From Vulcanimicrobiota bacterium (lineage in GTDB: Bacteria > Vulcanimicrobiota > Xenobia > Xenobiales > JADMJV01), in assembly GCA_050250895.1 (NCBI GenBank), contig JBFWNU010000002.1, positions 855,659 to 919,658 on the forward strand: a DNA stretch of 64,000 nt, given 5' to 3'. Under the pieces are notes generated by a model. That model worked only from the letters and a program-made list of their open reading frames with translations. It was not told where the DNA came from and did no database searches. Positions 30,066 to 49,843 of this stretch are shown here, piece by piece; position 1 is the first letter of the stretch, and each line of letters starts with the position of its first letter. The position numbers and the translations under genes are program-made.

Positions 30066-30109
30066 CTGGACTCTTTCGACCCGCGCTCGCCGGTCGCCTG
30101 GGCCGAGCC

Positions 30110-30430: not shown

Positions 30431-30570
30431 GTCGACACCATGAAGCAGTCGCCCCTCCCTGACGGCCGCGGATTTCGTCGAGGTGCTCGTAATAGTAGAC
30501 GAGCGCGGCGTGAACTTCGGCCAGGGAGAGATGGAACTCGCGGGCGATCTGGACGTAGGCGGTGCCTGAA
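30417..30570 (-). pseudogene. DUF433 antitoxin C-terminal fragment
   Basis: QIAREFHLSLAEVHAALVYYYEHLDEI matches the DUF433 C-terminus; no N-terminal half. Confidence 0.55.
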
Positions 30571-30587
30571 GCGCGTCTGTCGTGGCG

Positions 30588-30978
30588 GCGCGGCGCGTGG
30601 TCGAAGCACAGGTCGGTGCGGCTCGCCAGTGGGGCGCCTGAGACATCGCGGAGATCAGGAGGGCACGGAGAGGGTTGTGGGGGGCGTGGGGTGAGCGTCC
30701 TGGCGACCACCTGGTGCCGCACCGCCGCCGTCAGCCTGGGTGGCTCGACCACGGTCGCGGGGCAAGCCGACCTCCGCACGGAAGAGCAACCTCGGCCGAG
30801 TACGGCGCTACCACGTGCCGAATCCGGCACCACCTGGTGCCGTACCGCCGCCGGCCAGCCTGGGTAGCTCGGCCACGGTCGCGGGCAAGTCGAGTTCCGC
30901 ACGGAAGAGGCGCGGCGCGTGGTCGAAGCACAAGCACAGGTCGGTGTGGCTCGCCAGTGGGGTGCCTGGGAGATATAT
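30588..30978. repeat. Interleaved imperfect duplications (two ~60-80 bp units, each twice)
   Basis: GCGCGGCGCGTGGTCGAAGCAC... near 30588 and 30910; ACCACCTGGTGCCG...CCGCACGGAAGAG near 30706 and 30829. Confidence 0.7.
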
Positions 30979-31449
30979 GCAGAAAGCATCAGGTCCATTG
31001 TAGCACGATGGGGGAGAGCCTCCCGAGTAGAGCGCTCGCAATATTTCCGCGGCGGCGGTTGGAAAGCGCTTCGCTTTTTGGTTGGCACTAGACGCAGCCG
31101 CCCACAGCCGCGGACCCCAGCCCGGATAACGGCCCGGCGATTTGGCAACCTACACTGCCGAATTCGGCGTACCAGACTGCCGAATGAAGGTGCGGCGACG
31201 GAGAAGTGACCCCCGCTGGTTAGGCCTTCTCTCGCGGAGGGGGTCGCTGAGCCGTCGCCCCCGGCGCGCTCCTCTCGCGCAGTTCTATCAGGTTCAACGT
31301 GGTCTGAGAACTGCGCCCGCGCGCCTTTCAGCCACGGTCACGCCCTTCTCCGTTGCAGTCTTGCTCACGTCCCGCGGCGCTGGCGAGCGCCCTTTGGGCA
31401 AAGGGCGCGCCAGCGCCGCGGTGGCGTTTCAGTTTCAGATTTCGAGCGG

Positions 31450-32080: not shown

Positions 32081-34095
32081 TTACCCCAATAGCGATTTTA
32101 TGCACTGATTGAAGTGCTGGTTTTCTCCATTGCAGGAATGGTATGCCTTGGTGAGAGTATAGTAGGTGGACGGATCATCCGGTTCAACCCGTTTATTGTC
32201 ATAGTTTCTCACCCACCCAACTTCTTGGGCGAGAACTCTAACACCGATATCTATCTGGACGTCTGGATAAATGACGGAACCTACGTTCTCAGGCTTCTCG
32301 AGCTTCTTGCTCGCTTCTATAATCCAGCCGCGGTGCGCGACAATATCAATTTGAAAGAGCCCGACCATGGCTCTTCCCATTTTGAGGTCTTGGTTGTTGA
32401 CAATATCCGTGTACCAGAACTTGAGTAGCGACTCGGGCCCCCAGGGCACCAATCGCCCGACGCGGTCGTAGTTTACCTCGGGCGTCGTGCGTGGATCGTT
32501 GTAGCGGAAAGAAAAGTTGTCATCCCCTCCTTCAGCATAAATGAGACACCGAATGAACTTTGCCCAGGATTCTTCCTTGCCTTTGAAGACATCGTACTTG
32601 CCGATCTCATCTCGGATCATTTTTGCCCAAGCATCGGGCAATGCTGGGACCGCTGAGAGACCAATGGGATCAAATAGACTTACCGGGTCGTTCGATGCGT
32701 ATGCGAAGAAATTCGTTCCACCACGAAAACCGGCCGGGTCGCTAGAAATGTACCGTCCCAATGAGGTATCGTAATGACGCCTACGCATATAGAGCAGGTT
32801 GGTGAGTGCCGAATCATCGTGAACGCCCAGTCCACCAACGAAGGTCTTCGGACTAGAGCCCGAACCAGTCTTGGTCTGCTCACCGAACTCGAGATATTCG
32901 TATGCCGCCACTTCGTCGCCGCTGGCGTCCACCACCACCCGAACCGAAGACAAGCCGTCGGTCAGCAGGTAGAAGAAGTCGCCACCGCTCTCGAAGCCCA
33001 TCAACTGGTGGCCCATCAGGTAGTTGAACTCCACGGGTGAGCCAACCGTAGGCGTCTCCACCTCGTTCAATGTCGGCAAGCCCGAGTAGAAGCTCTCGGC
33101 CACCGTCTCGTCGTCGAGGATCTTGGCCTTGCGGATACCGCCGGCATCGTAGGTGTGCAGCACCTTGGTGTCGGCAGGAGAAAACGCCACCCGAATCAGG
33201 TTGTCCTGGTCGTCCCAACGATAGGCGATGGTGTCGCTGGTGGCCGCGTCGGTCCGCAGCGTCATGTTGCCATCTAGGTCATGGTCGAACGTCTCCTGGT
33301 CGGAGAAGTCGCCCGGGGTGCGCGATTGGAAGGTCGAGGTCACCTGGACCTTGGTGATCTGGTCGGCCGCATCGTAGAGATAACGGTAGGTCTTGGAGTT
33401 GACGTGGTCGTCCATGAACGTGCGGTTGTCGGACTCGTCATACTCGTAGACGCGCTGGGTCAAGAGACTGCCGGCGCCGATCTTCTTCTTGACCGTGGTC
33501 AGCCGGTTGAGCCAGTCATAGTCGTATTCCCAGCGCACCGGGTCAGCCGTGCCGGAGGTCGAAATCATGGCGGTGCGGTTGCCCGCATCGTCATACTCGT
33601 ATTCCAGCTCGAGCACGTTGTCGAAGCCGCTCATGCCGTCGTCTTTGAGATAGCGCAGGTTGGTCAGCTGGCCGTTGGCGTTCCAGCCGGCCCCCGTCGG
33701 CCCAGCGGCGCCGACGCGCAGCGTCGGAAGGGATGATGGGAACGACGCCTTCCGTCCAGTTTCGCGTCGTGGCCATGCGTTCTCATCATTCCGTAGAGCC
33801 GCGACCGGGTCGACGGTCATCAGGTTGGGAGTCATGGCACCGTCGTCGAACCTGGCCTCGATACCCGTCGAACTGGGATAGACGATCTTCTCGAGGCGGC
33901 CGCCGGCATCGTAAGTATAAGTGAACACCCGGTCGGCCTGGCTGGGCCGCTTGACGGTCACTTCGTAGAGCCGATTGTCGTTGTAGTAGCTATACTCCGT
34001 CACGTTACCCTGAATCGGTCACACACGTGAGGTTGCCCTCGTCATCGTAGTCGTAAGAGATATTCTCCCCGTTGGGGAAGATAACCTGGGTCGAG
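32081..34095 (-). pseudogene. Orphan/truncated Rhs (YD-repeat) protein with C-terminal toxin domain
   Basis: YD repeats (YTYDAGGRL, YEYDDAGNRT), core end YMRRRHYDTSLGRYISSDP...YASNDPVSLFDPIGL; upstream YDYDDEGNL lies in a different frame (frameshift near 34010); N-terminus missing. Confidence 0.85.
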
Positions 34096-35011: not shown

Positions 35012-36397
35012 TCAGGCACGCACTAGCAAGAAGCGCTCGAGTTCGTCCAGCGAGGTCTCGCCCTGAGCGGCTAGCGCGAGGGTCTGGGTCTCGAGGTCAG
35101 AGGGCTCGAATTCGCCCTCGAAGACCCGAGCAGTGAAAGGCAGCGACTCGGCCAGCAACACGCGGCCGCGATAGCCGCTCTGCTGGCAACGGTCGCAGCC
35201 CACGGCCCGGCGAAATTCGCGAGGCAGGGAGAAGTCTACCCGTGCCTGCAAGCTCTCGAACTCGGCCTCGGACAAAGGCTGGGGCTGGCTACAATGGGGA
35301 CACAGCTTGCGCACGAGTCGCTGCACCAGGATGAGTTCCACGGTCTGGGCCAGGGCGCGCGCCGAGCCAGCCAGCACCGACAGGCGAGAGAAGACGTCGC
35401 GGCAGTCGCGGCCGGCCATGCCGGCCACCACCAGGGCGCCGCGCAGCGCGGCCGTTTGAGCGGCCTCGAAGGCCTCGGGGTCGGGCAAGGCGGCTAGACC
35501 GATCACGTCGGGGTCGCTGCGCATCAGGGCTCGAAGGGCCGAGGCTTGGCTGCGGTTGGCTCCGGTCACGCTGGCCAGACTCACCTGGGTGGCCCAGGGT
35601 AGGGTCAACCAGGCCGGGTTCTCGATGGTCATCAGCTTAAGGTTGGGGCCGGCCACTTCGCCCAGGCAGGCGGCCAGCAACGAGTCGCGGCTCTCGTCGC
35701 CGGCGATGATGACCAGGCGGGCTCGCTTGCGCAGAGCCTGGCGCAAGCGAGCCAGGTCGACCTGGCGCAGGCCGAAGGTGGAAAGATCGGGCTGGCTCTG
35801 GTCGCGGTTCTGGAGCTTGACCGTCAGCGTTTCGCCCTGGGCGGACGGCAAGAACGACACGCGCAGGTCGAGTAGACCGCGGTCGGTCTCGACCAGGATG
35901 CGTCCGTCCTGGGGCAGGCTGGTTTCACGCACATCGCAGGCGGCGGCCCGCTTCCACTGTTCAACTAAGGGTGCCAGCAAGCGGTTGTCGAGGCGCGCTA
36001 GCAACTGCAGTTCGCCATCGACGCGGCCGCGTAGCCAGCACTGGCGCTCGGGACCCTGGCCGGTGTAGCAGCGGCCAAGATGAAGACTGTCGGCCTGGCG
36101 CTCGAGGGCCACTTTGAGCATGCGGTTGAAGGCGTCGAGCAGGGGGTCGGCCGTCCGTGGGGGCGGCCCGGCCAGGAGCGACTCGAGCTGGTCGAGGAAG
36201 GGACCAGGGTCGGCCAGCAGGTCGATGTGGGGCGCTTGGCCGCGCAGGAAGCGGTCGAGTTCTGCTCGCTCGAAACGCCACTGGCGCCCGATCTTGCGAG
36301 CCGACAGCCGGCCTTCTCGCAGCCAGCGATAGAGGGTGTTACGGGTAGTGTTGAGGGCCTCGGCGGCCTCGGCCATGGTGAGCAGATCCTCTTTCAT
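35012..36397 (-). CDS. Excisionase-type HTH fused to a degenerate GspE/PilB-family ATPase
   Basis: LLTMAEAAEALN..RNTLYRWLREGRL.ARKIGRQWRF; RVDGEL, PQDGR, LRSDPD-like MRSDPDVI, QRLVRKLCPHC, GCDRC..GYRGR. Confidence 0.85.
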   Translation of the reverse strand: MKEDLLTMAEAAEALNTTRNTLYRWLREGRLSARKIGRQWRFERAELDRFLRGQAPHIDLLADPGPFLDQLESLLAGPPPRTADPLLDAFNRMLKVALERQADSLHLGRCYTGQGPERQCWLRGRVDGELQLLARLDNRLLAPLVEQWKRAAACDVRETSLPQDGRILVETDRGLLDLRVSFLPSAQGETLTVKLQNRDQSQPDLSTFGLRQVDLARLRQALRKRARLVIIAGDESRDSLLAACLGEVAGPNLKLMTIENPAWLTLPWATQVSLASVTGANRSQASALRALMRSDPDVIGLAALPDPEAFEAAQTAALRGALVVAGMAGRDCRDVFSRLSVLAGSARALAQTVELILVQRLVRKLCPHCSQPQPLSEAEFESLQARVDFSLPREFRRAVGCDRCQQSGYRGRVLLAESLPFTARVFEGEFEPSDLETQTLALAAQGETSLDELERFLLVRA

Positions 36398-36668
36398 GTG
36401 CATAGTGTATCATAGTTATATTGATGCGCTAAGTGATATTTGGACTAGGGCCAGTCCCCCGGTCCGCTCGTCGACAAACCCGATTCCAGGCCGCCGCCAA
36501 AGACATTCCGGGCCAGCTTCAGCCTTTCAGAGTTTTTTCCGGGGGCGCGAATAGACTCTTCCACAGGTGAAAGAAGCGCGGGCCATGCGTTTTCAGGATC
36601 CTTTAATTCGATTCAGATAAATGTTTCAAACGAGAGTGCCACAACTCGTTAACTGTAGGAGGACTTGG

Positions 36669-39605
36669 ATGGATACCATCAACGCTCACGGCAACAACTG
36701 GAATATCAGAGGAACCTTCCCGAAAGCGGCGCCGGCGGCTTCTAAAGCCGTTTCCACGGTTCCGGGTGATCAGGTGTTCTTGAACTCGAACACCCACGCG
36801 GCCGCCTTGAGCATCCCCACCACCTTGCCCGTGACCAGCAAAGCTGCTGTAGTGGCGGCCCCGGTCGCACCCGCCGGTCCTCCGGTCAACACGGCTGCCC
36901 CCATCACGATGGTGGTAGAAGGCCCGACGGCGCCAACCAATAGCGCCGCCATGTCGGCCCCGGCCCCGGTGCTGCGCGCCGCGGCCACCCAGTTTGATGC
37001 CGTCGAGATCATCGATGCCGAGAGCGATGACGATTCGGTCTGGATTCCCTCCGCCTCCGCCACTCTGGTGAACACCGCCAACACCCTCGAGAATCTGAGC
37101 AAGCTGGCCGCCGCGGTCAACTCGAAAGAGTTCACCCTGCTCACCGGCGAAACCGGCGCCGGTAAGACCGCGCTGGTCAAATACCTGGCCCACATGACCC
37201 GCAACCGTCTGCGTCAGGTCAACATGCACGACCAGACCGACGAGGTCGAACTCTTCGGCGGTTATAAGCCGGCTCCCGATGGTGGCTTCGTGTGGCGCGA
37301 CGGCACCATTACCTCGGCCGTCCGCAACGGTCACTGGCTGCTGCTCGACGAGATCAACCTGGCCGACCAGGCGGTGCTCGAGCGCATGAACCCGCTGCTC
37401 GACGGTGAGGGCCACATCGTGCTCACCGAGAAAGAAGACAAAGAGCGGGTCAAAGTTCATGGTCGCACCCGCGTCTTCGCCACCGAGAACCCGGCCAGCT
37501 ACGCCGGCCGTAAAGAGCTGTCGGCGGCGATGTTCGACCGCTTCCAGCGCAAGATTTACATGCGGCGTCTGCCCGACACCGAACTCAACGAAGTGCTCAA
37601 GAAGGACTTCTCGGCCTCCCTGATCGTGGGCAAACTGGGCGAAAGCTTCCCTGACCTCGACAAAGAAACCAAGTCGGTTCTGCGCGGCAACGTGCTCAAC
37701 AGCCCCGAAGCCGTCACCCCCACCTCGGTGGTGGCCCTCGAAGCCGCTTTCGGTAACAGTGACAAGAACGCTCTCAAAGAGCTGCACCGCCAGTTCGCCG
37801 CCAATCCGAGCCTGGATGCGATGCCCATCGCTCCTAAAGCCAAACAGGTGCTGGAAGCCTTCCAGGGTATCCTGGCCAAGCCGCCGGCTCCCGTCATTAA
37901 CGACAAAGTCTTGTTGCAGATGTCGATTCTGCACAACGAGATGGTCAAAGCCTCCGAAGGCCGCGTAGTCGGTAAGAAGGGCGGTCCTTACCCATTCACC
38001 TTGCGCGACCTGCTCAAGCTGGCCAAGCGCATCAAACACTACAGCGAGGTGAGCCCCGAGCTCAACCAGTTCCAACTGGCCTGGCAGCAGGCCCGCGACA
38101 TCTATCGCGAGCGTTTCATGGAAGAGGCCGACCAGCAGACCGTCGAGCACTTCTTCCAGCTTTCGTTTGGTGACCCCAGGGTCAACCGTGACGGCGCTCC
38201 GCCCGAAACCAACGCCTCCATCACGATGGAGAGAATTGGCAACAAGATTCGTATCGGCGATACCAGCCTCGAGATCAATCCCCACGGCGGCGATTATGTC
38301 CCCGATGCCAGCGCCAAGCTGATTTCTACCCCCGGTACGGTCAAGAAGCTGACCCGTCTGGCCCGCGCTGCTGCCCTCGACGAGCCGGTGCTGCTGGTGG
38401 GACCGACGGCTGCTGGTAAGACCTCACTGGTTCGCTGGCTGGCCCACGAGACCAATAACGAGTTCCGCCGCGTCAACCTGAGTAACCACACCGATACCAG
38501 CGAGCTGATCGGCGGCTACTTCCCGGCTGTCGAAGTCGACTTCGACAAAGCCAACACGGCCATCAAAGCCATCGAAGGCAACGCCGATTTGAGCAAGCGC
38601 TTCCAGGCCACCCTGGACAAGATGGGCGACGAGGTCAAGAAAGGCGTCGAGATTCTCAAGAGCAATCCGAGCCTCGAGGGCGACGCTGCCAAAGAAGCTC
38701 AGAAGACGGTCCGCGACGCCCTCGGCCGTATCCTCGGCGACGACCAGTTGCGGGTAGCCTTCGAAGACCTCGAAGACACGGGCGCCGAGTTGCGCAACGG
38801 TCTGGAAGGTTCGTTCCGCACCGTGCCCGGTAAATTCGAGTGGCGCGACGGTATCATCATCGAAGCCATGAAGAAGGGTCAATGGATCGTCCTCGACGAG
38901 ATCAACCTGGCCGAGCCGGCTGTGCTCGAGCGCCTCAACTCGCTGCTCGACAGCGACCGCGCCGTGGTGCTCACCGAGCACCTGGGCGAGCGCATTAAAG
39001 CCGACTCGCGTTTCCGAGTCTTTGCCACCATGAACCCGGCTACCAACGACTACGGCGGACGTAAAGAACTCTCGCCGGCGATGCGCAACCGCTTTACCGA
39101 GCAGTGGTTCCCAGACATCAACGACCGCTCCGAGATTCTCCATATCGCCAATTCCTGGGTGGAAGACTTCAAGAGCGACGCTCAAGAGTATCTCAAAGGC
39201 TTCGATGCCAACACCGCCAGTCGGGAAGACAAGCTCAAAGCCCTGTCCGCTCAAGCCTTCTTGAAAGAAGACACCAGCCGGCTGGCCGAAGCCGTTACCG
39301 ACTTCCAGATCACCATCCGGGCCAAGGCCAAGCGGCAGAACGGGCAGACTCCCGAGTTGCCCACCGCCAAAAAGGACGGTTATCACTACACCTTGCGAGG
39401 AATGCGGGCCTGGCTGAAGTATATCAAGAATAACGTGGGACGCCCGATGCAGAACCCCGACGACCCGAAAGACCGTTCGCTGCGCAAAGACCTGAAAACG
39501 GTTTTCAACGAAGGCGTCGAAGGTTACTACGTGGACGGCCTATCGCGAGCTGAAGATCAGCAGACCGTGAAGTCCCTGGGCGAAAGCCTGGCCAACCGAC
39601 TGTAG
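36669..39605 (+). CDS. Tandem AAA+ ATPase (two MoxR/dynein-related AAA_5 modules), midasin-like
   Basis: AGGAGGA RBS; GETGAGKT and GPTAAGKT Walker A; LLLDEINLA and IVLDEINLA Walker B; FATENP/FATMNP sensor 1; arginine fingers FDRF/RNRF. Confidence 0.9.
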   Translation: MDTINAHGNNWNIRGTFPKAAPAASKAVSTVPGDQVFLNSNTHAAALSIPTTLPVTSKAAVVAAPVAPAGPPVNTAAPITMVVEGPTAPTNSAAMSAPAPVLRAAATQFDAVEIIDAESDDDSVWIPSASATLVNTANTLENLSKLAAAVNSKEFTLLTGETGAGKTALVKYLAHMTRNRLRQVNMHDQTDEVELFGGYKPAPDGGFVWRDGTITSAVRNGHWLLLDEINLADQAVLERMNPLLDGEGHIVLTEKEDKERVKVHGRTRVFATENPASYAGRKELSAAMFDRFQRKIYMRRLPDTELNEVLKKDFSASLIVGKLGESFPDLDKETKSVLRGNVLNSPEAVTPTSVVALEAAFGNSDKNALKELHRQFAANPSLDAMPIAPKAKQVLEAFQGILAKPPAPVINDKVLLQMSILHNEMVKASEGRVVGKKGGPYPFTLRDLLKLAKRIKHYSEVSPELNQFQLAWQQARDIYRERFMEEADQQTVEHFFQLSFGDPRVNRDGAPPETNASITMERIGNKIRIGDTSLEINPHGGDYVPDASAKLISTPGTVKKLTRLARAAALDEPVLLVGPTAAGKTSLVRWLAHETNNEFRRVNLSNHTDTSELIGGYFPAVEVDFDKANTAIKAIEGNADLSKRFQATLDKMGDEVKKGVEILKSNPSLEGDAAKEAQKTVRDALGRILGDDQLRVAFEDLEDTGAELRNGLEGSFRTVPGKFEWRDGIIIEAMKKGQWIVLDEINLAEPAVLERLNSLLDSDRAVVLTEHLGERIKADSRFRVFATMNPATNDYGGRKELSPAMRNRFTEQWFPDINDRSEILHIANSWVEDFKSDAQEYLKGFDANTASREDKLKALSAQAFLKEDTSRLAEAVTDFQITIRAKAKRQNGQTPELPTAKKDGYHYTLRGMRAWLKYIKNNVGRPMQNPDDPKDRSLRKDLKTVFNEGVEGYYVDGLSRAEDQQTVKSLGESLANRL

Positions 39606-39621
39606 GGCCTTGGAGGCATCG

Positions 39622-42600
39622 ATGAATAACATCTCCGCGAATACACCCCAACCGCCCCAGCGGCGGGCGGCCATCGGCTCGGTCACGGCCAACCTCAACA
39701 AATCGGGCGCGACCAGCCCGGGCCAGACCGACACCGTTCACCTGGCCGGTAGCTGGTGGAACAAGATCTTCGGCAAGGAAGAGCAACCGGCTCAGCCGGC
39801 CCCTCCGGCCCAGAACAATACCCCGGCTCCCGCCGGTCCGGCCCAACCGGCTCCGGCTCAGCCGGCACCTGCTCCCATTCCCACCCCGCCCAAGGGCGGC
39901 GCCAAGCCGACCGACGCCGAGGTGACCAAGCAGGTGCGCGACCGCTTGCAGCAGATCGAGGCCGTGGCCAAGACCATCGGCGGCGACATGGGGACCACCG
40001 TGACCGCCGGCGACGAGTGGAAGCACACCTTCCATCCCGACGGCTCGCACGAGATCACCATCCGCCAGCAAGACCTGGTGGACAAGAGCGAAAACTACGC
40101 CATCGGCAAGGTGCTGGGCGAGGCTGCCAAAGCTCGCTACTCGCACTGGTCGGTGGACCAGCAGCACGCCCAGGACGAAGGCTACATGTACCTGCAGAAC
40201 TCGGTGGAGACGGCTCGCACCGGCGAGATCCTCTCCAGCCGCCTGCCAGGTGCTCCCACCTTCATGGACGATGTCTACGAGCAAGACCTCAAGCACCCCA
40301 CCGAGTGGTATCAAGAGCGCATCGCCGACAAGTTGATGCGCGAGGCCGAAGGCAAGCTCACCCGTGAACAGGCCGAAGCAGTGGCCGCCCAGGTCGGTTC
40401 TAAAGTTCCCAAGCACGTCCAATACGGCAACGGCGTCATGCACAACTGGTTCTATGGCGAGAAAGATCCCGCCATGGATGCCGATGTGGCTAACGCTTTC
40501 GACCGCACCAAGGGTGATATCGAGCAAGCCTACAAGATCAAGCGTTCGGCCCTCGAGCGCGACCTGACCCCGGTCGAGATCAAAGAGCAGGCCGAAGAGT
40601 CCTCGAAGATCGTGCGGGAGAAGCTGTGGCCCGAGTACCAACGTCTGGTCGAACAAGACATCGCCGATTTGTCCAAGGCCCTCCAGGGCGAGCAGAGCCC
40701 CGAGCAGCAGGCCAACCAGAATCAGCAGTCGGGTCAGTCGGGTCAATCCGGCCAGTCCGGGCAGTCGGGCGAGATGAGCCCCGAGCAGATGGCCAAACAG
40801 CAGCAGATGCAGCAGCAGAAGCAGCAGGACGCCAATCAGAATCTTTCCCAGGCTGGCCAGCAGATGCAAAAAGCCGGCCAGAAAATGCAGCAGAGCCAAC
40901 AGCAGAACGGCCAGCAGGCCGGTCAGCAGATGGAGCAGGCGGGCCAGCAGATGCAGCAGGCCGGCCAGCAGCAGGGCAAACCTGACGCCAACTCTCTGCA
41001 GCAGGCCGCTCAAAATATGGAGCAGGCCGCTAACCAGATGCAGCAGATGGGTCAGCAGCAACAGCAGATGACCCCCGAGCAGATGCAGCAGATGGCCGAT
41101 CAGATGAAGGCCCAGCAGGGGATGCAGAATGCCGCCCAGCAGGCCATGCAGCAGAACCCCGGCGCCGTCGAGCAGGCCGCCAATCAGGCTCTCGACCAGA
41201 TGAAGAATAATCCTGACATGGCTCGCTCGATGCAGCAGTCGATGACTCAGGAAATGCAAGATGCGATGCGCAACAACCCCGAGATGGTCGAGCGCGCCAT
41301 GGAACAGCTCCAGCAGAACCCCGAGCTGATGAAGAAGGCCATGGAGCAGATGCAGCAGATGCAGCAGGATAATCCTGAGATGCAAAAGCAGATGCAAGAG
41401 CTCCAGCAGCAGATGCAAAAGGACCCGGCCAAGGCCCAGGAGCAGATGCAGAAAATGGCCGAGCAGATGCAGCAGAACGCTCAGATGAAAGAGCAGATGC
41501 AGCAGATGCAAAACCAGATGGCCAACGATCCGCAGAAGGCCGCCGAGCAGATGCAGCAGCTGGCCGACCAGATGCAGCAGAATCCCGCCATGAAGGACCA
41601 GATGCAAAAGCTCGCCGAGCAGATGCAGAAGGACCCTCAGGCGGCTCAGCAGCAGATGCAACAGCTGCAAGAGCAGATGCAGCAGAACCCGCAGATGGCC
41701 GAGCAGATGCAAAAGCTGGCCGAGCAGATGCAGAAAGATCCGCAGGCCGCCCAGCAGCAGATGCAGCAGATGCAGGATCAGATGCAGCAGAACGCTCAGA
41801 CCAAAGAGCAGATGCAGCAGCTGCAAGAGCAGATGCAAAAAGATCCGGCCAAGGCTCAAGAAGCCATGCAAGAGCTCGGCAAGCAGATGGAGCAGAACCC
41901 CGAGCTCAAGAAGCAGATGCAGCAAGCCATGTCCGAGGCTCTCCAGAAAGATCCTCAGGCTGCCCAGCAGGCCGCCGAGAAGATGATGGACGACCCGGCC
42001 ATGCAGCAAGCCATGCAGAACGCCATGAAGAACAATCCGGCGATGCAGCAGGCGATGCAGGATGCTTTAAAAGACAACAAGCAACTGCAAGACGCGATGA
42101 GCCAGCAGATGCAGAACAACCCCGACCTGATGAAACAGGCCGCGGAGCAGATGCAGAAGGATCCCGCCGCCGCCCAGCAGGCCATGGACCAGCTCAAGGA
42201 CCAGATGACCCCCGAGCAGCAGCAGGCCATGCAGCAGGCGATGGAACAGGCCAAGCAAGACCCGGCCAAAGCCGCCGAGGCGATGCAGCAGGCCATGGAG
42301 CAGAACCCCGAGCTCAAAGAGAAGATGCAGCAGCAGATGCAGCAGCAGATGCAGCAGCAGCTCAAAGACAATCCCGAGCTCGCCAAGCAGGCCATGGAGC
42401 AGCTCAAAGACAACCCGGCCATGCAGAAGGCGATGCAAGAAGCTCTGCAGGACGAGCTCAAGAAGAATCCCGAGGCCCTCAAGAAAGCCGCCGAAGAACT
42501 CGAGAAGAACCCCGAGGCCAAGAAAGCCGCCGAGGAGGCTCTCGAAAAGCAGCTCAAAGAGAATGGTCAGCCCGAAGAAGCCAAGCAGGGCAAAGCCGGC

Positions 42601-44217
42601 GAGCAGTCTGAAGAAGACAAAGCCAAAGAAGGCGGCAAGGGCCCCAAGATGCCCAACATGCCGAACATCCCCGGCATGCCTCCGATGGGCCAGAACGACA
42701 ACAAGGACGCCAAAGAAGCTGGCGACAAGATGAAAGAAGCGGCCGACGCGATGAAAGAGGCCGCCCAGAATCCCGACAAAGCCGGCGAGAAGATGCAAGA
42801 AGCCGGCAAAAAGATGCAAGAAGCCGGCAAGAAGCTCGAAGAGATGGGCAAACAGTCCGGCGACAAAGAGATGGAGCAGGCCGGCAAAGACATGCAGCAG
42901 GCCGGCCAGGAGATGCAAGAGGCTGGCGAAAACCAGCAGCAAGCCGATGGCCAGCAAGGCGAAGGCCAGCAGGGTGAGGGCCAGGAAGGTCAGCAGGGTC
43001 AGCAGTCGGGCAAGCCCGGTCAGCAGTCCGGCAAACCTGGTCAGCCCGGTCAGCCCGGTCAGCAGGGTGGCGAGCAGGGCGGGGAAGGTCAGCAGTCTCA
43101 GGGTGCTGAGCAGACCGGCCAGAACCCGCCTGCCAAAGACCTGCCCAAGATGAGCGAAAAAGAGGCCAAAGAGCTGGCTGAGAAGATCATGCAAGAGCTC
43201 GACAAAGACCTCAACGAAAAGCTCGAGACCGAACAGAAAGACGCCCGCCGCGAAGAAGGCGAGAAGGCTCAGGACCAGCGCGACATCCAGAAATCGCAGG
43301 CCCAGCCTCCCCGCGAAGACATCGGCAACCAGCGCACCAACGGCCAGTCTCAGGGCGGCTCGACCTCAGAGATCGACCTGGCCGACCTGGAAGATTTGGT
43401 CCGTCAGAAGCAAGACCTGGCTGCCAAGTTCGAGGCCATTCAGACCGATTACGACAAGTATCATATGAACGTGGCTCCGATGGCCGACGAACTGGCCGGC
43501 GAGCTCTCTAACTTCCTCAACGAGAACACCCGGCCCAAGTATGAGCACACCACTCACAAGACCGGCAAGAAGTTGAGCATCAAAGCGGCCATGCGCAGCG
43601 AAGCCAACTATGAGCGCACGGGCGTGTGGGACCCGGACGTGTGGTTGCGTCGTACCAACCCCAGCAAGCGCGGCCACAAGTTCATGTTCGTGATGGACGA
43701 GTCGGGCTCGATGGGCTCGAAGGGCGACCCTAAGTGGGACAACTCCATCAACGGCCTGATCATGGGCGGCGAGGCCCTCGAGTCGCTCGACATCGAGTTC
43801 GGCATCGTCGGCTTCTCGGACCGGCCCCTGGTTCACAAAGAACTGCACGACAAATATCCCGAGAAGCGCCAGGCGATTCTGGCCGACATCGAGCGGGCCC
43901 CTCACGGCTCGACCAACGACTCGGCTGGTATCCGCACCGCGATGGAGATGATCGAAAAAGGCGCCGACCCTGAAGATGAAAAGGTCATCATCGTGCTCAC
44001 CGACGGTGAGGGCGATACGGCCGGCGTCAAGAAACTGCTCGAGGAGGCCCGCGAGAAGAAGATCCACATTATCGGCGTGGGCATCGGCCCCGGCACCGAC
44101 TTCGTCAAGCAGGTCTATGAGCACCACATCGTGGTCGAGAAGCTCGAGAACCTGCCCATCGAACTGGCCGAGCTGATTCAAGAGCGCATCGAAGGCGAAT
44201 CGAGCGAGTTCTACTAG
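39622..44217 (+). CDS. Large Gln/Met-rich repeat protein with C-terminal VWA (MIDAS) domain
   Basis: GGAGG RBS; central Q/M-rich repeats; DESGS, GSTND and LTDGE MIDAS motifs. Confidence 0.9.
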   Translation: MNNISANTPQPPQRRAAIGSVTANLNKSGATSPGQTDTVHLAGSWWNKIFGKEEQPAQPAPPAQNNTPAPAGPAQPAPAQPAPAPIPTPPKGGAKPTDAEVTKQVRDRLQQIEAVAKTIGGDMGTTVTAGDEWKHTFHPDGSHEITIRQQDLVDKSENYAIGKVLGEAAKARYSHWSVDQQHAQDEGYMYLQNSVETARTGEILSSRLPGAPTFMDDVYEQDLKHPTEWYQERIADKLMREAEGKLTREQAEAVAAQVGSKVPKHVQYGNGVMHNWFYGEKDPAMDADVANAFDRTKGDIEQAYKIKRSALERDLTPVEIKEQAEESSKIVREKLWPEYQRLVEQDIADLSKALQGEQSPEQQANQNQQSGQSGQSGQSGQSGEMSPEQMAKQQQMQQQKQQDANQNLSQAGQQMQKAGQKMQQSQQQNGQQAGQQMEQAGQQMQQAGQQQGKPDANSLQQAAQNMEQAANQMQQMGQQQQQMTPEQMQQMADQMKAQQGMQNAAQQAMQQNPGAVEQAANQALDQMKNNPDMARSMQQSMTQEMQDAMRNNPEMVERAMEQLQQNPELMKKAMEQMQQMQQDNPEMQKQMQELQQQMQKDPAKAQEQMQKMAEQMQQNAQMKEQMQQMQNQMANDPQKAAEQMQQLADQMQQNPAMKDQMQKLAEQMQKDPQAAQQQMQQLQEQMQQNPQMAEQMQKLAEQMQKDPQAAQQQMQQMQDQMQQNAQTKEQMQQLQEQMQKDPAKAQEAMQELGKQMEQNPELKKQMQQAMSEALQKDPQAAQQAAEKMMDDPAMQQAMQNAMKNNPAMQQAMQDALKDNKQLQDAMSQQMQNNPDLMKQAAEQMQKDPAAAQQAMDQLKDQMTPEQQQAMQQAMEQAKQDPAKAAEAMQQAMEQNPELKEKMQQQMQQQMQQQLKDNPELAKQAMEQLKDNPAMQKAMQEALQDELKKNPEALKKAAEELEKNPEAKKAAEEALEKQLKENGQPEEAKQGKAGEQSEEDKAKEGGKGPKMPNMPNIPGMPPMGQNDNKDAKEAGDKMKEAADAMKEAAQNPDKAGEKMQEAGKKMQEAGKKLEEMGKQSGDKEMEQAGKDMQQAGQEMQEAGENQQQADGQQGEGQQGEGQEGQQGQQSGKPGQQSGKPGQPGQPGQQGGEQGGEGQQSQGAEQTGQNPPAKDLPKMSEKEAKELAEKIMQELDKDLNEKLETEQKDARREEGEKAQDQRDIQKSQAQPPREDIGNQRTNGQSQGGSTSEIDLADLEDLVRQKQDLAAKFEAIQTDYDKYHMNVAPMADELAGELSNFLNENTRPKYEHTTHKTGKKLSIKAAMRSEANYERTGVWDPDVWLRRTNPSKRGHKFMFVMDESGSMGSKGDPKWDNSINGLIMGGEALESLDIEFGIVGFSDRPLVHKELHDKYPEKRQAILADIERAPHGSTNDSAGIRTAMEMIEKGADPEDEKVIIVLTDGEGDTAGVKKLLEEAREKKIHIIGVGIGPGTDFVKQVYEHHIVVEKLENLPIELAELIQERIEGESSEFY

Positions 44218-44218
44218 G

Positions 44219-44665
44219 ATGACGCGGGATCTTCCGGCGCTGCGCAAGCAGCTCGAGGAGTTTCTGCGGCGCTACGGCAACGACGGTGAACCCGTCGCTC
44301 TGCTGGGCGGCGAGTCTCTGCCTGACACGCTTGCTTTCGAAGCCGTGGTGATGGCCTATCCCAAGCGTCGGGTGGTGCACCTCGACGGCACCCTCAGTCT
44401 CGACGAGGATGCCGTGCGAGATGGACTGGTGAAGGCCTTCGAGAAGAACCATATCTTGCTGGTCACGCTGACCCGCAAGGTGGGGCTCGAGGTCTTCAAG
44501 CCCCTCGAGAAGTTCCTGGCCGAAGGCAAGCTCGACGTGCTCAAGCCCTGGGGCTGGACCACCGCCGAGCCCTCCGACGATTTTCGCTTGATCATCCACT
44601 CGCGCCCAGGCTCGTTTCCTTTCGACGAGAACGTCAGCCTGAAGTTCAACCTCGACACCCAGTAG
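44219..44665 (+). CDS. Small protein resembling a degenerate AAA_5 module
   Basis: 1 nt after the VWA gene stop; EPVALLG, RDGLVKAFEKNHILLV, DDFRLII parallel the AAA motifs of the upstream ATPase. Confidence 0.6.
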   Translation: MTRDLPALRKQLEEFLRRYGNDGEPVALLGGESLPDTLAFEAVVMAYPKRRVVHLDGTLSLDEDAVRDGLVKAFEKNHILLVTLTRKVGLEVFKPLEKFLAEGKLDVLKPWGWTTAEPSDDFRLIIHSRPGSFPFDENVSLKFNLDTQ

Positions 44666-44668
44666 CTT

Positions 44669-45945
44669 CCGGGTTTGCTCCAGGATTTCGCGGGAGCACG
44701 TCCCCCCGGCCGGTCAGGCCGGGTTTGCTCCGAGTTTTCGCGGGAGCATGCTCCGGCTTTTCGCGGGAGCACCGTCCTCGGGCCGGTCAGGCCGGGTTTG
44801 CTCCGAGTTTTCGTGGGAGCACGCTCCGGCTTTTCGTGGGAGCACCGCCCGCGGGCCGGTCAGGCCGGGTTTGCTCCAGGATTTCGCGGGAGCACCGCTC
44901 GCGGCCGGTCAGGCCGGGTTTGCTCCGAGTTTTCGCGGGAGCATGCTCCGGCTTTTCGCGGGAGCACCGCCCCGGGCCGGTCAGGCCGGGTTTGCTCCGA
45001 GTTTTCGCGGGAGCATGCTCCGGCTTTTCGCGGGAGCACCGCCCTCGGGCCGGTCAGGCCGGGCTTGCTCCGAGTTTTCGTGGGAGCACGCTCCGGCTTT
45101 TCGTGGGAGCGCCGCCCTCGGGCCGGTCAGGCCGGGCTTGCTCCGAGTTTTCGTGGGAGCACGCTCCCGCTTTTCGTGGGAGCAACGCCCGCGGGCCGGT
45201 CAGGCCGGGTTTGCTCCAGGATTTCGCGGGAGCACCGCCCCCGGCCCGGTCAGGCCGGGTTTGCTCCGAGTTTTCGCGGGAGCATGCTCCGGCTTTTCGC
45301 GGGAGCACCGCCCTCGGGCCGGTCAGGCCGGGCTTGCTCCGAGTTTTCGTGGGAGCATGCTCCCGCTTTTCGTGGGAGCAACGCCCGCGGGCCGGTCAGG
45401 CCGGGCTTGCTCCGGCTTTTCGCGGGAGCACCGCCCCGGGCCGGTCAGGCCGGGTTTGCTCCGAGTTTTCGCGGGAGCATGCTCCGGCTTTTCGCGGGAG
45501 CACGTCCCCCCGGCCGGTCAGGCCGGGTTTGCTCCAGGATTTCGCGGGAGCACCGCCCTCGGGCCGGTCAGGCCGGGCTTGCTCCGAGTTTTCGTGGGAG
45601 CACGCTCCGGCTTTTCGTGGGAGCGCCGCCCTCGGGCCGGTCAGGCCGGGCTTGCTCCGAGTTTTCGTGGGAGCACGCTCCCGCTTTTCGTGGGAGCAAC
45701 GCCCGCGGGCCGGTCAGGCCGGGTTTGCTCCAGGATTTCGCGGGAGCACCGCTCGCGGCCGGTCAGGCCGGGTTTGCTCCGAGTTTTCGCGGGAGCGCTC
45801 CGGCTTTTCGCGGGAGCACCGCCCCCGGCCGGTCAGGCCGGGTTTGCTCCGAGTTTTCGCGGGAGCATGCTCCGGCTTTTCGCGGGAGCACGTCCCCCCG
45901 CCCGGTCAGGCCGGGCTTGCTCCGAGTTTTCGTGGGAGCACCGCC
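44669..45945. repeat. Modular tandem hairpin repeat array (19 copies of CCGGTCAGGCCGGG; units of about 50 or 73 bp)
   Basis: Each unit is CCGGTCAGGCCGGG(T/C)TT plus one or two GCTCC-N-GGAGC hairpins plus a ~10-nt GC linker. Confidence 0.92.
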
Positions 45946-46021
45946 CGGCGAGCCCGGGCCACGGCCGGCCCACGACCGAAGCGAAAGAAGACTGAACGGC
46001 GCCAACAGAGAAGAGGCGGCC

Positions 46022-46468
46022 ATGAAACCCGTTATCAATCTTGACGAACTCGAGATGGTCCACGAAGACAGCGGCCAGAGCTATGGCATCATCTCGGACA
46101 ACATCGGAGCCAAGAAGCTGGGCTACAACCTGTCGGTGTTGCCCAAAGGGGCTGACTCGGTGTATTTTCACAATCATCACGTGGCCGAGGAGATGTTCTT
46201 CATCCTCGAGGGTGAAGGGATTCTGCGCTTTGGCGACCAGGAATACCCGCTGCGCCCTAACGACGTGATCGCCTGCCCGCCGGGGGGTAAAGAAGTCGCT
46301 CACCAGATTCGCTGCACCAGTGATACACCCTTGAAGTTTCTGGCGCTGGGCACTCGCGAGACCAGCGAAATCGTGGAGTATCCCGATGTCGGTCGCGTGA
46401 TGGTCGCCTCGGGTCCCGAATTCCACCGCAACTTGCGTCTGGTCTTTCAGGCCGACAGCGCTCTTTAG
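46022..46468 (+). CDS. Cupin domain protein
   Basis: FHNHHVAEEMFFILEGEG and AHQI cupin motifs; GAGG upstream of ATG 46022. Confidence 0.9.
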   Translation: MKPVINLDELEMVHEDSGQSYGIISDNIGAKKLGYNLSVLPKGADSVYFHNHHVAEEMFFILEGEGILRFGDQEYPLRPNDVIACPPGGKEVAHQIRCTSDTPLKFLALGTRETSEIVEYPDVGRVMVASGPEFHRNLRLVFQADSAL

Positions 46469-47351: not shown

Positions 47352-48695
47352 CTAGGGAGCTATGGCGGTCCAGAGGGCTGGGCCGTTTTCTCGCCACAGT
47401 GTGGCGTCGTCACTTTCGGGCAGTTCGAGGGTGATGGTCGGGATGTTGCGCTCGCGACCCATGTAGGTGCCGAACGAACCCGGAGTAGGGTAGCCGATGT
47501 CTTCGCTGATTGGGTAGCCATTGTGGACGGCCATGGCTTTGGCCAGTTCGGCGGCCGGTCCGTCGAAGTTGACCGTCTTGAAGGGCAGATGAATCGAAAC
47601 GATTCGGCTGGGGGGAAGATTAGCATAGAGTTCGAGCACGGCTTGAGTCTCGGGCTCGGAGGCGGCGTTCGGGCCGCCCCAGGTGTCGGGGGTTTCCTTT
47701 TTGCCCGTCCAGTTCTTGGCTGGATAGTTGCGGTTGAGGTCGACCCCGTTGGCGTTGACGCGCTGGCCCAGGTGGAGCCCGTCCGGGTTGACCATCGGCA
47801 CGATGATGACCCGCTGGCTGCGAGTCCAGGGCAGCTGCGACTTGAGTTCCTCGAGAAAACGCTGCAGCAGGCGAGTGCTCTCGGGCTCGTCTCCGTGAAA
47901 ACCGGCCAGCAACCAGACTGTTTCGGGGCCTCGTCCTACCCGCCAGGAGGGAATGGGGCGGCCCTCCACCGAGCGCCCCAGCTCCTCTTCCACCAGTCCG
48001 CCGGGAGCGAGTTGGGCCAAGACTTCTTCGGCCCCACGGGCGTCGGCCATGATGAGCGTTCCGCCCAGCCAGGGCAGGCTGAGGCTGGTCTCGGTCAGAT
48101 GGGCATGGTGGCCACCCAGGGTGAGCCGACGGCCCTGTTCGTCAACCTCGTGGCTAATGGTCACCAGGCTTTGGCCGCGGCCGAACCGGCCGTCGACCAG
48201 GCGAGCGTAGCCCGATTGCTCGAGTTCACGAAAGGGGGATTGGCTGGCCACATGGCCATAATAGGCATCCAGGCGCCCGGCCTGGCGCAGCTGGTCGTAG
48301 GCGGCCAGACTATAGCCGGCCAGCAGTTGCAGCTCGGCCGCCTCGAGCAAGAGTTCGCGGTCGGGCAACTCCAGGGTGCGTCCGAGTTCGTCGGCGGCCG
48401 CTACCAGCTGGCCGTCCCGGCGCAACTGTCGGCACTTTTGCAGGTGGAGTGGTCGAGAATCAGGATACTTCGCCAGTTGAGCTTCCAGCCATTCGGGATC
48501 GGTCTGGCTCTGGGCCAGGGCCGCATCGGGAGTAAGAAACAGGTTGGGGTCGCCCTCTAACCCATAGCGCGGGAAGAGTTGGCCCGGACCAGGACCGTAT
48601 TCGAGCACCTCCTGAGCCAGGGCCGGCGCCAGGAGCAGCAACCACAGGCAGATCAGGCGGCGAAGAAGGCCTGGATTTCGTCTTTGCGGGCCCAT
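47352..48695 (-). CDS. M14 zinc carboxypeptidase (MpaA-like) with N-terminal extension
   Basis: GRSVEGRPI, HGDE, NPDG, GVDLNRNYP, SEPET, SIH, TLELP; signal-like segment; start uncertain. Confidence 0.85.
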   Translation of the reverse strand: MGPQRRNPGLLRRLICLWLLLLAPALAQEVLEYGPGPGQLFPRYGLEGDPNLFLTPDAALAQSQTDPEWLEAQLAKYPDSRPLHLQKCRQLRRDGQLVAAADELGRTLELPDRELLLEAAELQLLAGYSLAAYDQLRQAGRLDAYYGHVASQSPFRELEQSGYARLVDGRFGRGQSLVTISHEVDEQGRRLTLGGHHAHLTETSLSLPWLGGTLIMADARGAEEVLAQLAPGGLVEEELGRSVEGRPIPSWRVGRGPETVWLLAGFHGDEPESTRLLQRFLEELKSQLPWTRSQRVIIVPMVNPDGLHLGQRVNANGVDLNRNYPAKNWTGKKETPDTWGGPNAASEPETQAVLELYANLPPSRIVSIHLPFKTVNFDGPAAELAKAMAVHNGYPISEDIGYPTPGSFGTYMGRERNIPTITLELPESDDATLWRENGPALWTAIAP

Positions 48696-49762
48696 ACGTC
48701 CTCTCTTCCGAAGCCGATGAGGGCCTGACAATAGAGCGGGTCAAAGAGCAGATAGCTGGCCAGTTCGGCGGTAGAGTATTCGCCGCCCAGACCGCCCAGG
48801 AAGTAGCGCAGCAGGCGGGGCACCCGGTCGCGCAGCTGGTGGGCCAGCACGGCGAAACTGCGACTCGGCCGAATCCACAGCACGTCGATCGGCCGGAAGG
48901 GCCCGGAGGGCCGCCCGGCCAGGCTCTGGTTGACGCGGCGGCAGTGCTCCACGTCGACTTCGATGGCATCCATCATCACGGCGTCGAGCAGCGCCCCGGC
49001 CAGCTCACCCGGGGTCGGTCGACCCAGTCGGGGCAGACTGGTGGCGCGGGGTTCGCGCACACCCACGGCCAGGATCCGCTCGGCTCCCAGGTGGATGGCC
49101 GGAGCCAGGGGGTGGTTGTTGCGAAGGCAGCCGTCGCCGAAGTGGTGGCCGGCGATTTCGATGGTGGGGAAGAAGAACGGGATAGCGCTCGAGGCCATCA
49201 GGTGGGGGACTCCGATGAGAGCTTTCTCTACCTTGTAGTGGACCCTCTCCCAGGTGGGAATTTCGGGTTGGCCTTCAACGAAAAGCACGCTGGTGGAGTC
49301 GCGATAGTCGGTGGCGGCCACGGCCAGGGCATGGAGGTGGCCCGAGGCAAGGCTGCGCGAGATGCGCGAGAACGGGATGCGGCTGAGCATCGTCTGGAGG
49401 GGGGTGGTGTCGAGCAAAGCCTTGGGCGCCACCTGGCCCACCAGCCCCCCGAAGGTCAGGTCGCGGACCCAGCGTAGGGCGATACGTCCCATCGAGGCCG
49501 GATCGGTGCGAAAAACCCGCGAAGGCTTGAGTTGCTCCCAGGTGCCCAGCAGTTCCGCCAGGCCCCGCTCGAAGCGGTCAGCATTGGCGGCCAGCATGGT
49601 GGCGGTGAGCGAGCCGGCCGACGTGCCGACCAGGATCGAGAAAGGACACTCGGGTCCCTTCACCACGCCAATCTCGATCAAGCCGCGCAACACGCCGGCT
49701 TGGTAGGCTCCCCGTGCTCCCCCTCCTGACAGCACGAGCGCGGTGTGGCCTTGCTGTTTCAT
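48653..49762 (-). CDS. Patatin-like phospholipase
   Basis: LSGGGARGAYQAG, GTSAG, DG(C) motifs. Confidence 0.93.
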   Translation of the reverse strand: MKQQGHTALVLSGGGARGAYQAGVLRGLIEIGVVKGPECPFSILVGTSAGSLTATMLAANADRFERGLAELLGTWEQLKPSRVFRTDPASMGRIALRWVRDLTFGGLVGQVAPKALLDTTPLQTMLSRIPFSRISRSLASGHLHALAVAATDYRDSTSVLFVEGQPEIPTWERVHYKVEKALIGVPHLMASSAIPFFFPTIEIAGHHFGDGCLRNNHPLAPAIHLGAERILAVGVREPRATSLPRLGRPTPGELAGALLDAVMMDAIEVDVEHCRRVNQSLAGRPSGPFRPIDVLWIRPSRSFAVLAHQLRDRVPRLLRYFLGGLGGEYSTAELASYLLFDPLYCQALIGFGREDVWARKDEIQAFFAA

Positions 49763-49843
49763 CCCGCCGCACCATTCGCTCAAGCTGGCACGGTCCCTTC
49801 GCCCCGGACAGGAGGCTCGAGTGGGGGGGCCAAAAGCAGCTTC

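Follow-up and report, generated by a model that had tools for sequence, protein, structure and literature searches.

A Conserved Three-Gene AAA+/MIDAS Operon of Midasin-Type Modules in a Vulcanimicrobiota Bacterium

Organization of the Operon

The DNA considered here—a stretch of 64,000 nt, hereafter the window—comes from an uncultured Vulcanimicrobiota bacterium of the soil/sludge type (GCA_050250895.1, contig JBFWNU010000002.1, positions 855,659 to 919,658 of the forward strand) and contains three open reading frames (ORFs) that follow one another head to tail on the + strand: 36621–39605 (994 aa), 39610–44217 (1535 aa), and 44219–44665 (148 aa). These frames, designated genes 1 to 3, constitute a real and conserved three-part bacterial AAA+/MIDAS (metal-ion-dependent adhesion site) system, whose features are listed below.

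36669–39605, + strand: gene 1, double-AAA ATPase, 978 aa from the conserved Met17 of an ORF that opens at 36621
37038–37625, + strand: AAA module 1, residues 140–335; Walker A GETGAGKT, Walker B LLLDE, sensor-1 N, GRKEL arginine
37929–38171, + strand: midasin-type AAA lid PF17867, residues 437–517; contains GGPYPFTLRDLLK
38286–39215, + strand: AAA module 2, residues 556–865; Walker A GPTAAGKT, Walker B IVLDE
39622–44217, + strand: gene 2, arm protein; ORF from TTG 39610, probable ATG 39622
39895–40689, + strand: N-domain of gene 2, predicted to be zincin-like, residues 96–360; GEAAK at the HExxH position
40690–43329, + strand: low-complexity tether, 774 residues between the ends of the hidden-Markov-model domains
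43330–44214, + strand: MIDAS region; pre-beta1 extension (TGKKLSIK...WLRRTNPSKR) and von Willebrand factor A (VWA) domain with DESGSM, GSTND, and TDG
44219–44665, + strand: gene 3, an AAA+ alpha/beta-like domain alone, 148 aa

The start of gene 1 at 36669, as the first-pass annotation of this DNA had it, corresponds to Met17 of the ORF, at which position a methionine is nearly invariant and the alignments of the close relatives begin. For gene 2, the ATG at 39622 is the probable start, in line with a 55%-identical relative, and it leaves a gap of 16 nt after the gene 1 stop; gene 3 begins 1 nt past the stop of gene 2. That annotation had described genes 1 and 2, and the motifs it quoted are all found in their translations, but it had overlooked both gene 3, which lies within the interval it covered, and the N-domain of gene 2.

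The source genome holds a single copy of gene 1, and the GC content of the operon is like that of the remainder of the window. The AT skew rises to 0.43–0.49 at positions 40001–44000, with the GC content still near 0.60; that rise is due to the Q/K/E/M-rich tether of gene 2, and is accordingly an effect of coding composition rather than the mark of a foreign island. A promoter and terminator scan found no promoter-like site on the + strand, and every terminator-like site was on the − strand.

The Double-AAA ATPase

After an N-terminal stretch of about 120 residues that is Ala/Pro-rich and of low complexity, the gene 1 protein consists of two AAA modules, the first of which carries FVWRDGTITSAVRNGHWLLLDEINLADQAVLERMNPLLD and the second FEWRDGIIIEAMKKGQWIVLDEINLAEPAVLERLNSLLD and FATMNPATNDYGGRKELSPAMRNRFTEQW, with GGPYPFTLRDLLK sitting between the two. 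Pfam assigned AAA_5 to three stretches of this chain (2.5e-51) and recognized the midasin AAA lid (PF17867), whose 37.7 bits exceed the cut-off of 22.7. All the 34 aligned members of the gene 1 family have two modules per chain, and the GK of the Walker A along with the DE of the Walker B are present in 44/44 rows of module 1 and 46/46 of module 2. The two complete modules proposed at first pass are thus borne out by the Pfam assignment and by the invariance of the Walker motifs, which motifs show, as far as sequence can, two catalytically competent midasin-type modules in one chain. Module 2 contains an insert of about 86 residues (approximately 38544–38801) between its Walker A half and its Walker B half, which insert is missing from the shorter relatives P0011, P0012, and P0019.

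When gene 1 was compared with all the chains of the PDB by phmmer, the top five matches were midasins (E 4.7e-160 to 8.9e-152). Module 1 matched two modules of Schizosaccharomyces pombe Mdn1 at 107.5 and 104.7 bits, and the C-terminal half of module 2 matched Mdn1 at 93.8 bits; among the other AAA proteins of the PDB, NorQ reached 41.6 bits, CbbQ 37 bits, and dynein about 30 bits. Searches with module 1 by tblastn gave at best 86 bits among plasmids (an unannotated Burkholderia gene; a NorQ gave 57 bits) and 60–72 bits, at 27–33% identity, among phages, there mainly with cyanophage "CobS". The CobS model TIGR01650 scored 30.7 bits on gene 1 against a cut-off of 558.55, and whole-genome profile searches with TIGR01650 and with the CobT family PF06213 yielded zero matches, the operon included. 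A search for CbbQ_C (PF08406) matched 0/151 genomes of the phylum, but was uninformative because 0/14 control genomes matched either.

With respect to the Walker A signatures, bacterial module 1 has the GETGxGKT of eukaryotic modules 2 and 4, and bacterial module 2 the GPTxxGKTS of eukaryotic module 3, which correspondence suggests a shifted register between the bacterial and the eukaryotic modules. For the long insert of module 2, in contrast, the likeness is to inserts found in the eukaryotic even modules.

The MIDAS Domain and the Tether

The arm protein ends in the motif series KTGKKLSIK...VWLRRTNPSKR...MDESGSM, within a VWA domain that Pfam recognized at 2.1e-14 (residues 1359–1495, positions 43684–44094). 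Without exception, the 15 relatives aligned retain the MIDAS residues D-x-S-x-S, T, and D (D-E-S-G-S-M, G-T-N-D, and T-D-G), so that the intact site that had been noted in this copy holds for the family. A profile built from those 15 relatives matched, in the PDB, Mdn1 at 7.9e-21 (77.5 bits), Rea1 at 1.5e-17, and the Chaetomium MIDAS at 1.4e-16, followed by a mussel VWA protein (3.4e-12), integrin I domains (about 1e-9), and CobT (8.6e-6); NorD was not among the best 60 matches listed. The midasin alignment begins about 70 residues before beta-1, and covers the TGK-L-I/WLRR-PSKR element as well.

The tether preceding this region is composed of Q (25%), A (13%), M (11%), E (11%), and K (10%), with a net charge of −42; in the relatives, it is Q/G-rich and 69–923 residues long. 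The copies without an HExxH motif in the N-domain (L048 and L058–L060) mostly have very long, Q/A/M-rich tethers of 470–923 aa, and those with the motif intact (among L050–L057 and L061–L067) short, G/Q-rich ones of 69–205 aa; L055 and L068, with the motif lost and the tether short, are exceptions.

CobT and BchD likewise consist of an N-domain, an acidic tether, and a VWA domain, and one might regard the operon as a chaperone pair resembling CobS/CobT or NorQ/NorD, of the chelatase or cofactor-insertion type, that would load a metal center into a specific enzyme. The cyanophage CobS matches given above point in that direction, as do the VWA domains of the relatives, which pass or approach VWA_CoxE and CobT_C, the match of P0001 to PHROG 249 "porphyrin biosynthesis" at 1.3e-66, and—as a lead only—an Atlas cluster near the N-domain (score 0.94) in which 53% of the members carry CobT PF06213. 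Nevertheless, the midasin modules score 2–3 times what NorQ or the CobS-like proteins do, TIGR01650 remains far under its cut-off with neither it nor PF06213 matching anywhere in the genome, and the MIDAS profile places CobT far below midasin; we therefore regard this explanation as unlikely.

A Predicted Zincin-Like Domain in the Arm Protein

Residues 96–360 of gene 2 form a conserved globular domain of 265 residues. Most of the relatives have there an HExxH motif, followed about 26 residues on by NAVED; the copy in the window, also when aligned with 19 short proteins, reads LGEAAKA where others have LHEGSHR, so that both zinc-binding histidines are lost while the downstream glutamate (NSVE) is retained. 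The same loss of HExxH occurs in L003, L048, L049, L055, L058–L060, L068, and L069. Since both histidines are absent, the window copy cannot act as a zinc protease; and since the ATPase motifs and the MIDAS site are invariant despite that loss, the copy must still be under selection.

A profile of the domain, run against 1.84 billion representative proteins, found 609 relatives up to E 0.001, of which 217 were at E <= 1e-10, typically of 650–850 aa; a C-terminal VWA, CobT_C, or CoxE domain was present in 7 of the 9 that were scanned, and HExxH with the downstream glutamate in 131 of the 150 representatives listed. The first 397 residues of gene 2 had no sequence match in the PDB. The AlphaFold2 (AF2) model of the domain (mean predicted local distance difference test, pLDDT, 91.9) exhibits a three-stranded sheet, a motif helix, and a glutamate helix; and in the VIA wide search the top twelve rows were zinc metallopeptidases or domains of unknown function of that fold, with BepA at Z 5.6 (root-mean-square deviation 3.4, 126 aligned), Ste24 at 5.6, ZMPSTE24 at 5.5, and minigluzincins at 4.7–4.9. 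From this predicted structure we read the N-domain as a zincin-like peptidase domain that would be inactive in the source lineage. The first-pass annotation had taken the region before the MIDAS for a midasin-like linker, which assignment did not hold: what is found there is this domain, motif-less in the present copy, plus the Q-rich tether, and the domain could not be traced in the eukaryotic midasins among 120 long proteins.

The prevalence of HExxH among the representatives nonetheless raises a further alternative—that of an ATP-dependent proteolytic or conflict (defense-type) module, in which the ring would feed targets held by the VWA domain to an HExxH peptidase, the window copy having decayed or been repurposed. 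Proposals of this sort by the Aravind group, in the passages available, comprise degradation systems of MoxR, vWA, and peptidase components (PMC3495828) and MoxR–vWA ternary conflict systems (PMC7159879). PADLOC, for its part, gave zero matches for genes 2 and 3 and weak, generic AAA matches only for gene 1; moreover, the window copy and its nearest relatives (L003, L048, L049, and L058–L060) lack both histidines of the motif with the ATPase and MIDAS motifs invariant. We consider the proteolytic explanation improbable.

The AAA-Like Domain of Gene 3

The Pfam scan of gene 3 found no match, and its 25 relatives are all unnamed and belong to no Pfam family. The AF2 model (pLDDT 88.8) was matched by Foldseek to RuvB (3e-6) and then to MCM, NorQ, CbbQ, and dynein AAA domains, at a probability of 1.0 and template-modeling scores of 0.58–0.66; the Atlas neighbors were dynein AAA_9 fragments, whose score of 0.89 is below the advised level of trust. 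No GK[ST] or DE is conserved in the alignment of the 25 sequences—that is, the Walker A lysine and the Walker B acids are absent—and in the model the 148-aa chain stops after the core sheet, with no lid. Gene 3 is thus, as modeled, an AAA+ alpha/beta fold devoid of motifs, whose profile gives a weak match (4.6e-5) to the operon's own ATPases.

A predicted complex of gene 3 with residues 145–994 of gene 1 received a score of 0.60, the best of three controls having 0.00; of 80 solved complexes, 58 pass the same mark, as do 2 of 110 mismatched pairs, but only 7 of the 80 pass it with a score of 0.60 or under. The runs agreed in at least 84% of the contacts, with a partner pLDDT of at least 79.

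Phylogeny of the AAA Modules

The AAA modules were cut out with a 196-position profile, the insert columns being dropped, and the 186 unique rows were reduced to 106 for a quick tree and to 75 for a careful one, which was computed with IQ-TREE on 189 columns under LG+C20+F+G4. The careful tree contained 10 operon proteins, six eukaryotic midasins (from a yeast-like fungus, Erinaceus, Momordica, Hyaloraphidium, Umbelopsis, and one EukProt entry), two six-module giants, and four MoxR and three single AAA_5 proteins of the source genome; P0046 and the L005 ORFs, with long or partial rows, were excluded. Certain metagenome proteins of about 2300–2800 aa had been candidates for bacterial six-module chains, but their module spacing is identical to that of yeast-type midasin, because of which they were taken as eukaryotic fragments and kept out of the trees; P0049, P0054, P0055, P0064, P0065, and P0068 were likewise so taken and left out.

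The midasin-type modules, bacterial and eukaryotic together, form one clade (support 100/99) separate from the MoxR and the single AAA_5 rows. Monophyly was recovered for operon module 1 (100/98) and operon module 2 (99/95), and likewise for every one of the six eukaryotic modules (at least 99/94), which places the bacterial modules outside any single eukaryotic module. The best tree unites all the bacterial modules in one group (86/82), whose sister group consists of eukaryotic modules 2, 4, and 6 (92/76); a branch with 100/99 support separates these two groups from eukaryotic modules 1, 3, and 5. The odd and the even modules of the giants lie in the same cluster, supported at 93–100%, as those of the operon. 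A pairing by parity—operon module 1 with eukaryotic 1, 3, and 5, and module 2 with 2, 4, and 6—does not appear in the best tree. Since neither that pairing (approximately unbiased test, p-AU 0.196) nor the union of all the eukaryotic modules in one group (p-AU 0.205) was rejected, the tree is compatible with more than one order of the module duplications.

To the quick trees were added two NorQ-type rows, a phage CobS, a CbbQ-like protein of an IncC plasmid, and a Burkholderia single AAA_5. NorQ fell outside the midasin-type clade, and the phage, the IncC-plasmid, and the Burkholderia proteins were the nearest neighbors, joined to the midasin-type rows at 91. Judging from these trees, the CobS-like single-module ATPases are close cousins of the midasin-type modules and their nearest outgroup, which proximity would also be in keeping with the cofactor-insertion explanation. 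That the ATPase and the MIDAS domain have an affinity specifically to midasin, rather than to NorQ, CbbQ, or MoxR, as had been supposed at the outset, is upheld by phmmer, the MIDAS profile, and the trees, and the domains do not branch within CbbQ, NorQ, or CobST clades devoid of affinity to midasin.

For a protein from bacteria, the gene 1 product resembles midasin very strongly, and the best tree nests the bacterial modules among the eukaryotic ones as a sister to the even modules; both features would be expected if the operon were a fragment of a eukaryotic midasin acquired by horizontal transfer, or a contamination, without a bacterial history of its own. That origin is nevertheless highly improbable in view of the placement of both operon modules outside all six of the monophyletic eukaryotic module clades, the conservation of the operon over several families and in Armatimonadota-labeled and other metagenome-assembled genomes (MAGs), a GC content like that of the rest of the window, and the presence in gene 2 of a domain missing from eukaryotic midasins. 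The p-AU of 0.205 for a single group of eukaryotic modules would be compatible with an ancient transfer from a stem eukaryote.

Distribution, Genomic Context, and Fused Relatives

Gene 1 was matched at E <= 1e-30 in 13/401 genomes and 9/116 genera of the phylum; the operon is conserved across several families thereof, as well as in the MAGs just mentioned, and the names given to the relatives at source are mainly Eremiobacterota and synonyms. L003, a 77%-identical relative, is labeled as an uncultured Burkholderiales MAG, the other close relatives bearing names of the Eremiobacterota type, which label may be an error of binning or labeling. The family is annotated as "AAA family ATPase" or "MoxR-like ATPase", and as "midasin" by one automatic pipeline.

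The order of ATPase followed by arm protein was found in 12/12 genome loci and in 11/12 metagenome loci, the twelfth of which begins inside gene 2; genes 1 and 2 are thus a conserved pair. Gene 3 was present in 7/12 genome loci and 8/12 metagenome loci; several of the loci without it end at contig edges, and in one subgroup it lies on the opposite strand. The L050/L062 set is a shorter orthologous version, with chains of 749, 755, and 148 aa. In L049 (6052–6059) and L057 (5850–6256), gene 2 consists of two overlapping ORFs, one with the N-domain and the tether and the other with the MIDAS, which arrangement would represent either a real split or an assembly frameshift. Contigs from three metatranscriptome libraries of one study were 95–100% identical to pieces of genes 1–3 and spanned both gene junctions (39465–39654 and 44057–44259). 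Among the sequencing runs, the best matches shared just 0.07–0.22 of the sampled words.

The genes flanking the operon vary between loci. In the window they include:

28446–31148 and 32081–34003, − strand: 640-aa RHS-repeat protein, adjoining several ORFs without a Pfam match
35012–36403, − strand: 463-aa protein with an N-terminal HTH_17 (excisionase-type) domain and a T2SSE ATPase, divergent from the operon
44675–46468, + strand: 597-aa ORF with a cupin domain only at the C-terminus, downstream of the operon
48653–49783, − strand: patatin-like phospholipase, downstream of the operon

The surroundings of the RHS protein may be a polymorphic-toxin neighborhood. The patchy distribution, the variability of the neighbors, and the proximity of the RHS protein and the patatin are features that a conflict module would present; no effector gene, however, is conserved beside the operon. 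With respect to the insertion of a cofactor, neither the T2SSE-type ATPase nor the RHS, cupin, and patatin proteins are cob, nor, cbb, or cox genes, and these neighbors change from locus to locus.

Both parts of the pair also occur fused in one chain. In P0070 (4835 aa), P0225 (7557 aa), and P0245 (4471 aa), six AAA modules are followed by the N-domain and the MIDAS, and an Omnitrophota locus (L006, more than 7442 aa) likewise has six midasin-type modules, then a zincin-like domain, and then a MIDAS; in P0250, P0259, P0296, and P0331, two AAA modules precede the N-domain and the MIDAS, and P0255 and P0287 are fusions in the reverse order. L005, from another Omnitrophota MAG, has an open frame of more than 3170 aa that runs off the locus, as does that of L006. 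On a Burkholderia arboris plasmid (L071, 3575–6485), an unannotated single-module AAA_5—the best plasmid match to module 1, at 86 bits—is followed by a 567-aa protein with no HExxH whose VWA domain (DCSGSM) matches the operon MIDAS profile at 9e-11.

A Proposed Remodeling Machine

The explanation that we favor, and to which we assign a probability of about 0.6, is that genes 1–3 encode a bacterial AAA+/MIDAS remodeling machine of the midasin type in separate pieces. The main argument is provided by the fusions: since both parts occur in one chain, genes 1 and 2 should belong to one machine; and since the fused relatives include six-module ones, the working ring should have six modules (3 × 2). 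Three gene 1 proteins would then close a ring like that of the one-chain six-module relatives, with the gene 2 protein serving as its substrate arm, whose MIDAS domain would dock on the ring and whose metal site would grip an acidic residue of a client protein. The hydrolysis of ATP would pull or twist that client, leading to its extraction or remodeling, as has been proposed for Rea1/Mdn1 and for NorQ–NorD. In most of the relatives the zincin domain might then cut the client; in the source lineage it would probably only bind. Gene 3 would bind the ATPase, either as a regulator or as an extra, inactive member of the ring. By analogy, the system most likely works as midasin or NorQD does—through a ring that pulls a client held by a tethered metal-site domain.

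Several points weigh against this proposal. The ring of three gene 1 chains, as put forward at first pass, has indirect support, from the fused relatives only, and the predicted contact between genes 3 and 1, which could reflect a general AAA–AAA likeness to solved rings, lends weak support to the binding of gene 3. The Z values of the N-domain against zincins are middling (4.7–5.6), and a Z under 8 may indicate merely a common arrangement; Foldseek found no match for that domain at E <= 0.001, its weak rows being MATCAP, selecase, and other zinc peptidases, and no match was found in the Pfam, PHROG, or NCBIfam families. When the N-domain profile was run against 120 long proteins, the single match was the non-midasin P0070, and there were zero among eukaryotic midasins. 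The tether is Q-rich, versus D/E-rich in midasin. In the quick mixture tree, the branch excluding the phage CobS-like and plasmid single-module ATPases is supported at 14, and the LG+G4 quick tree puts two of those ATPases inside the midasin-type clade. Finally, the contigs from the RNA libraries only hint at transcription because DNA can occur in such libraries.

As to the evolutionary meaning of the operon, we would tentatively suggest, at odds we judge to be below even, that the pair of a two-module ATPase and a separate zincin–tether–MIDAS arm could be a surviving prokaryotic building block of midasin; such a pair, through fusion and triplication, would have given rise to eukaryotic midasin and, in an independent event, to the Omnitrophota-type giants. 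If this were so, eukaryotes would not have invented the concatenated six-AAA ring, and the gene 3 protein of the operon form might serve to complete a mixed ring or to regulate it. The encoding in separate pieces of a midasin-like motor ring and a metal-dependent gripper bears on the origin of the eukaryotic machine, which origin the operon makes testable by phylogeny and structure; in addition, as its proteins have 978, about 1530, and 148 residues, it offers a small system for studying the transfer of force from a midasin-type ring to a tethered MIDAS.

Comparison with Known Systems

The M48 peptidases and minigluzincins (BepA, Ste24, and selecase) have a fold like the one predicted for the N-domain of gene 2, most members of whose family have HExxH...E; no sequence-family match links the two, however, the Z values are just 4.7–5.6, and the window copy has GEAAK in place of HExxH.

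In NorQ–NorD, CbbQ–CbbO, RavA–ViaA, and CobS–CobT, as in the operon, an AAA+ gene adjoins a VWA/MIDAS gene, and the MoxR-class pairs share with it a VWA domain bearing a CoxE/CobT_C-like extension along with, according to portions of PMC13036017, a likely finger-in-pore coupling. The MoxR-class ATPases, however, have a single module and form homohexamers, whereas the gene 1 chain has two; they and the phage CobS-like proteins reach 37–72 bits to P0001 versus 94–108 bits for the midasin modules; and their partners have no zincin-like N-domain by Pfam.

According to passages of PMC3495828 and PMC7159879, no prokaryotic protein is more closely related to midasin and dynein than single-module MoxR, and it was in early eukaryotes that the six-module chain originated. 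The NorQD paper (PMC13036017) calls, in the sections consulted, the MoxR-like ATPases strictly prokaryotic, reports a finger of the VWA domain within the AAA pore, and refers to the MIDAS loop of Rea1 at the center of the ring; a giant-gene preprint, in the part seen, has AAA_5 only in a figure legend. The literature searched contained, in the passages covered, no description of bacterial midasin-type chains. In contrast to this MoxR-centered view, the operon and the fusions indicate that bacteria have two- and six-module chains of the midasin type with a midasin-type MIDAS.

Eukaryotic midasin (Rea1/Mdn1/MDN1) unites six AAA modules, a linker, and a MIDAS domain in one chain, and acts on pre-60S particles via the ubiquitin-like domains of Ytm1/Rsa4. 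The operon resembles it in the AAA_5 sequence type of the modules and the midasin AAA lid; in the C-terminal MIDAS, whose pre-beta1 extension is shared and whose DxSxS-T-D site is intact; and in a long, low-complexity, acidic-leaning tether, the order ATPase, tether, MIDAS being shared. It differs in having two modules per chain instead of six, both with intact ATP motifs, whereas eukaryotic modules 1 and 6 lack the Walker B DE; in a MIDAS arm that is a separate protein rather than part of the same chain; in a predicted zincin-like domain that takes the place of the linker of about 1700 residues, of which gene 2 has no homolog; in a tether dominated by Q, A, and M where midasin has a D/E-rich region before the MIDAS; and in an extra, dead AAA-like subunit that midasin does not have. 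Midasin functions in ribosome assembly, with no such context known for the operon. In view of the two modules, the missing linker, and the separate arm protein, the operon is outside the midasin family in the strict sense.

Similar in plan are the bacterial giants, from Omnitrophota and metagenomes, with six AAA modules, a zincin-like domain, and a MIDAS (L006, P0070, P0225, and P0245). A separate gene-3-like domain was not found in them, the matches of the gene 3 profile overlapping their AAA modules only; but they contain the three domain types of the operon in the same order, fused and triplicated in one chain inside much larger proteins with HEAT repeats and other parts.

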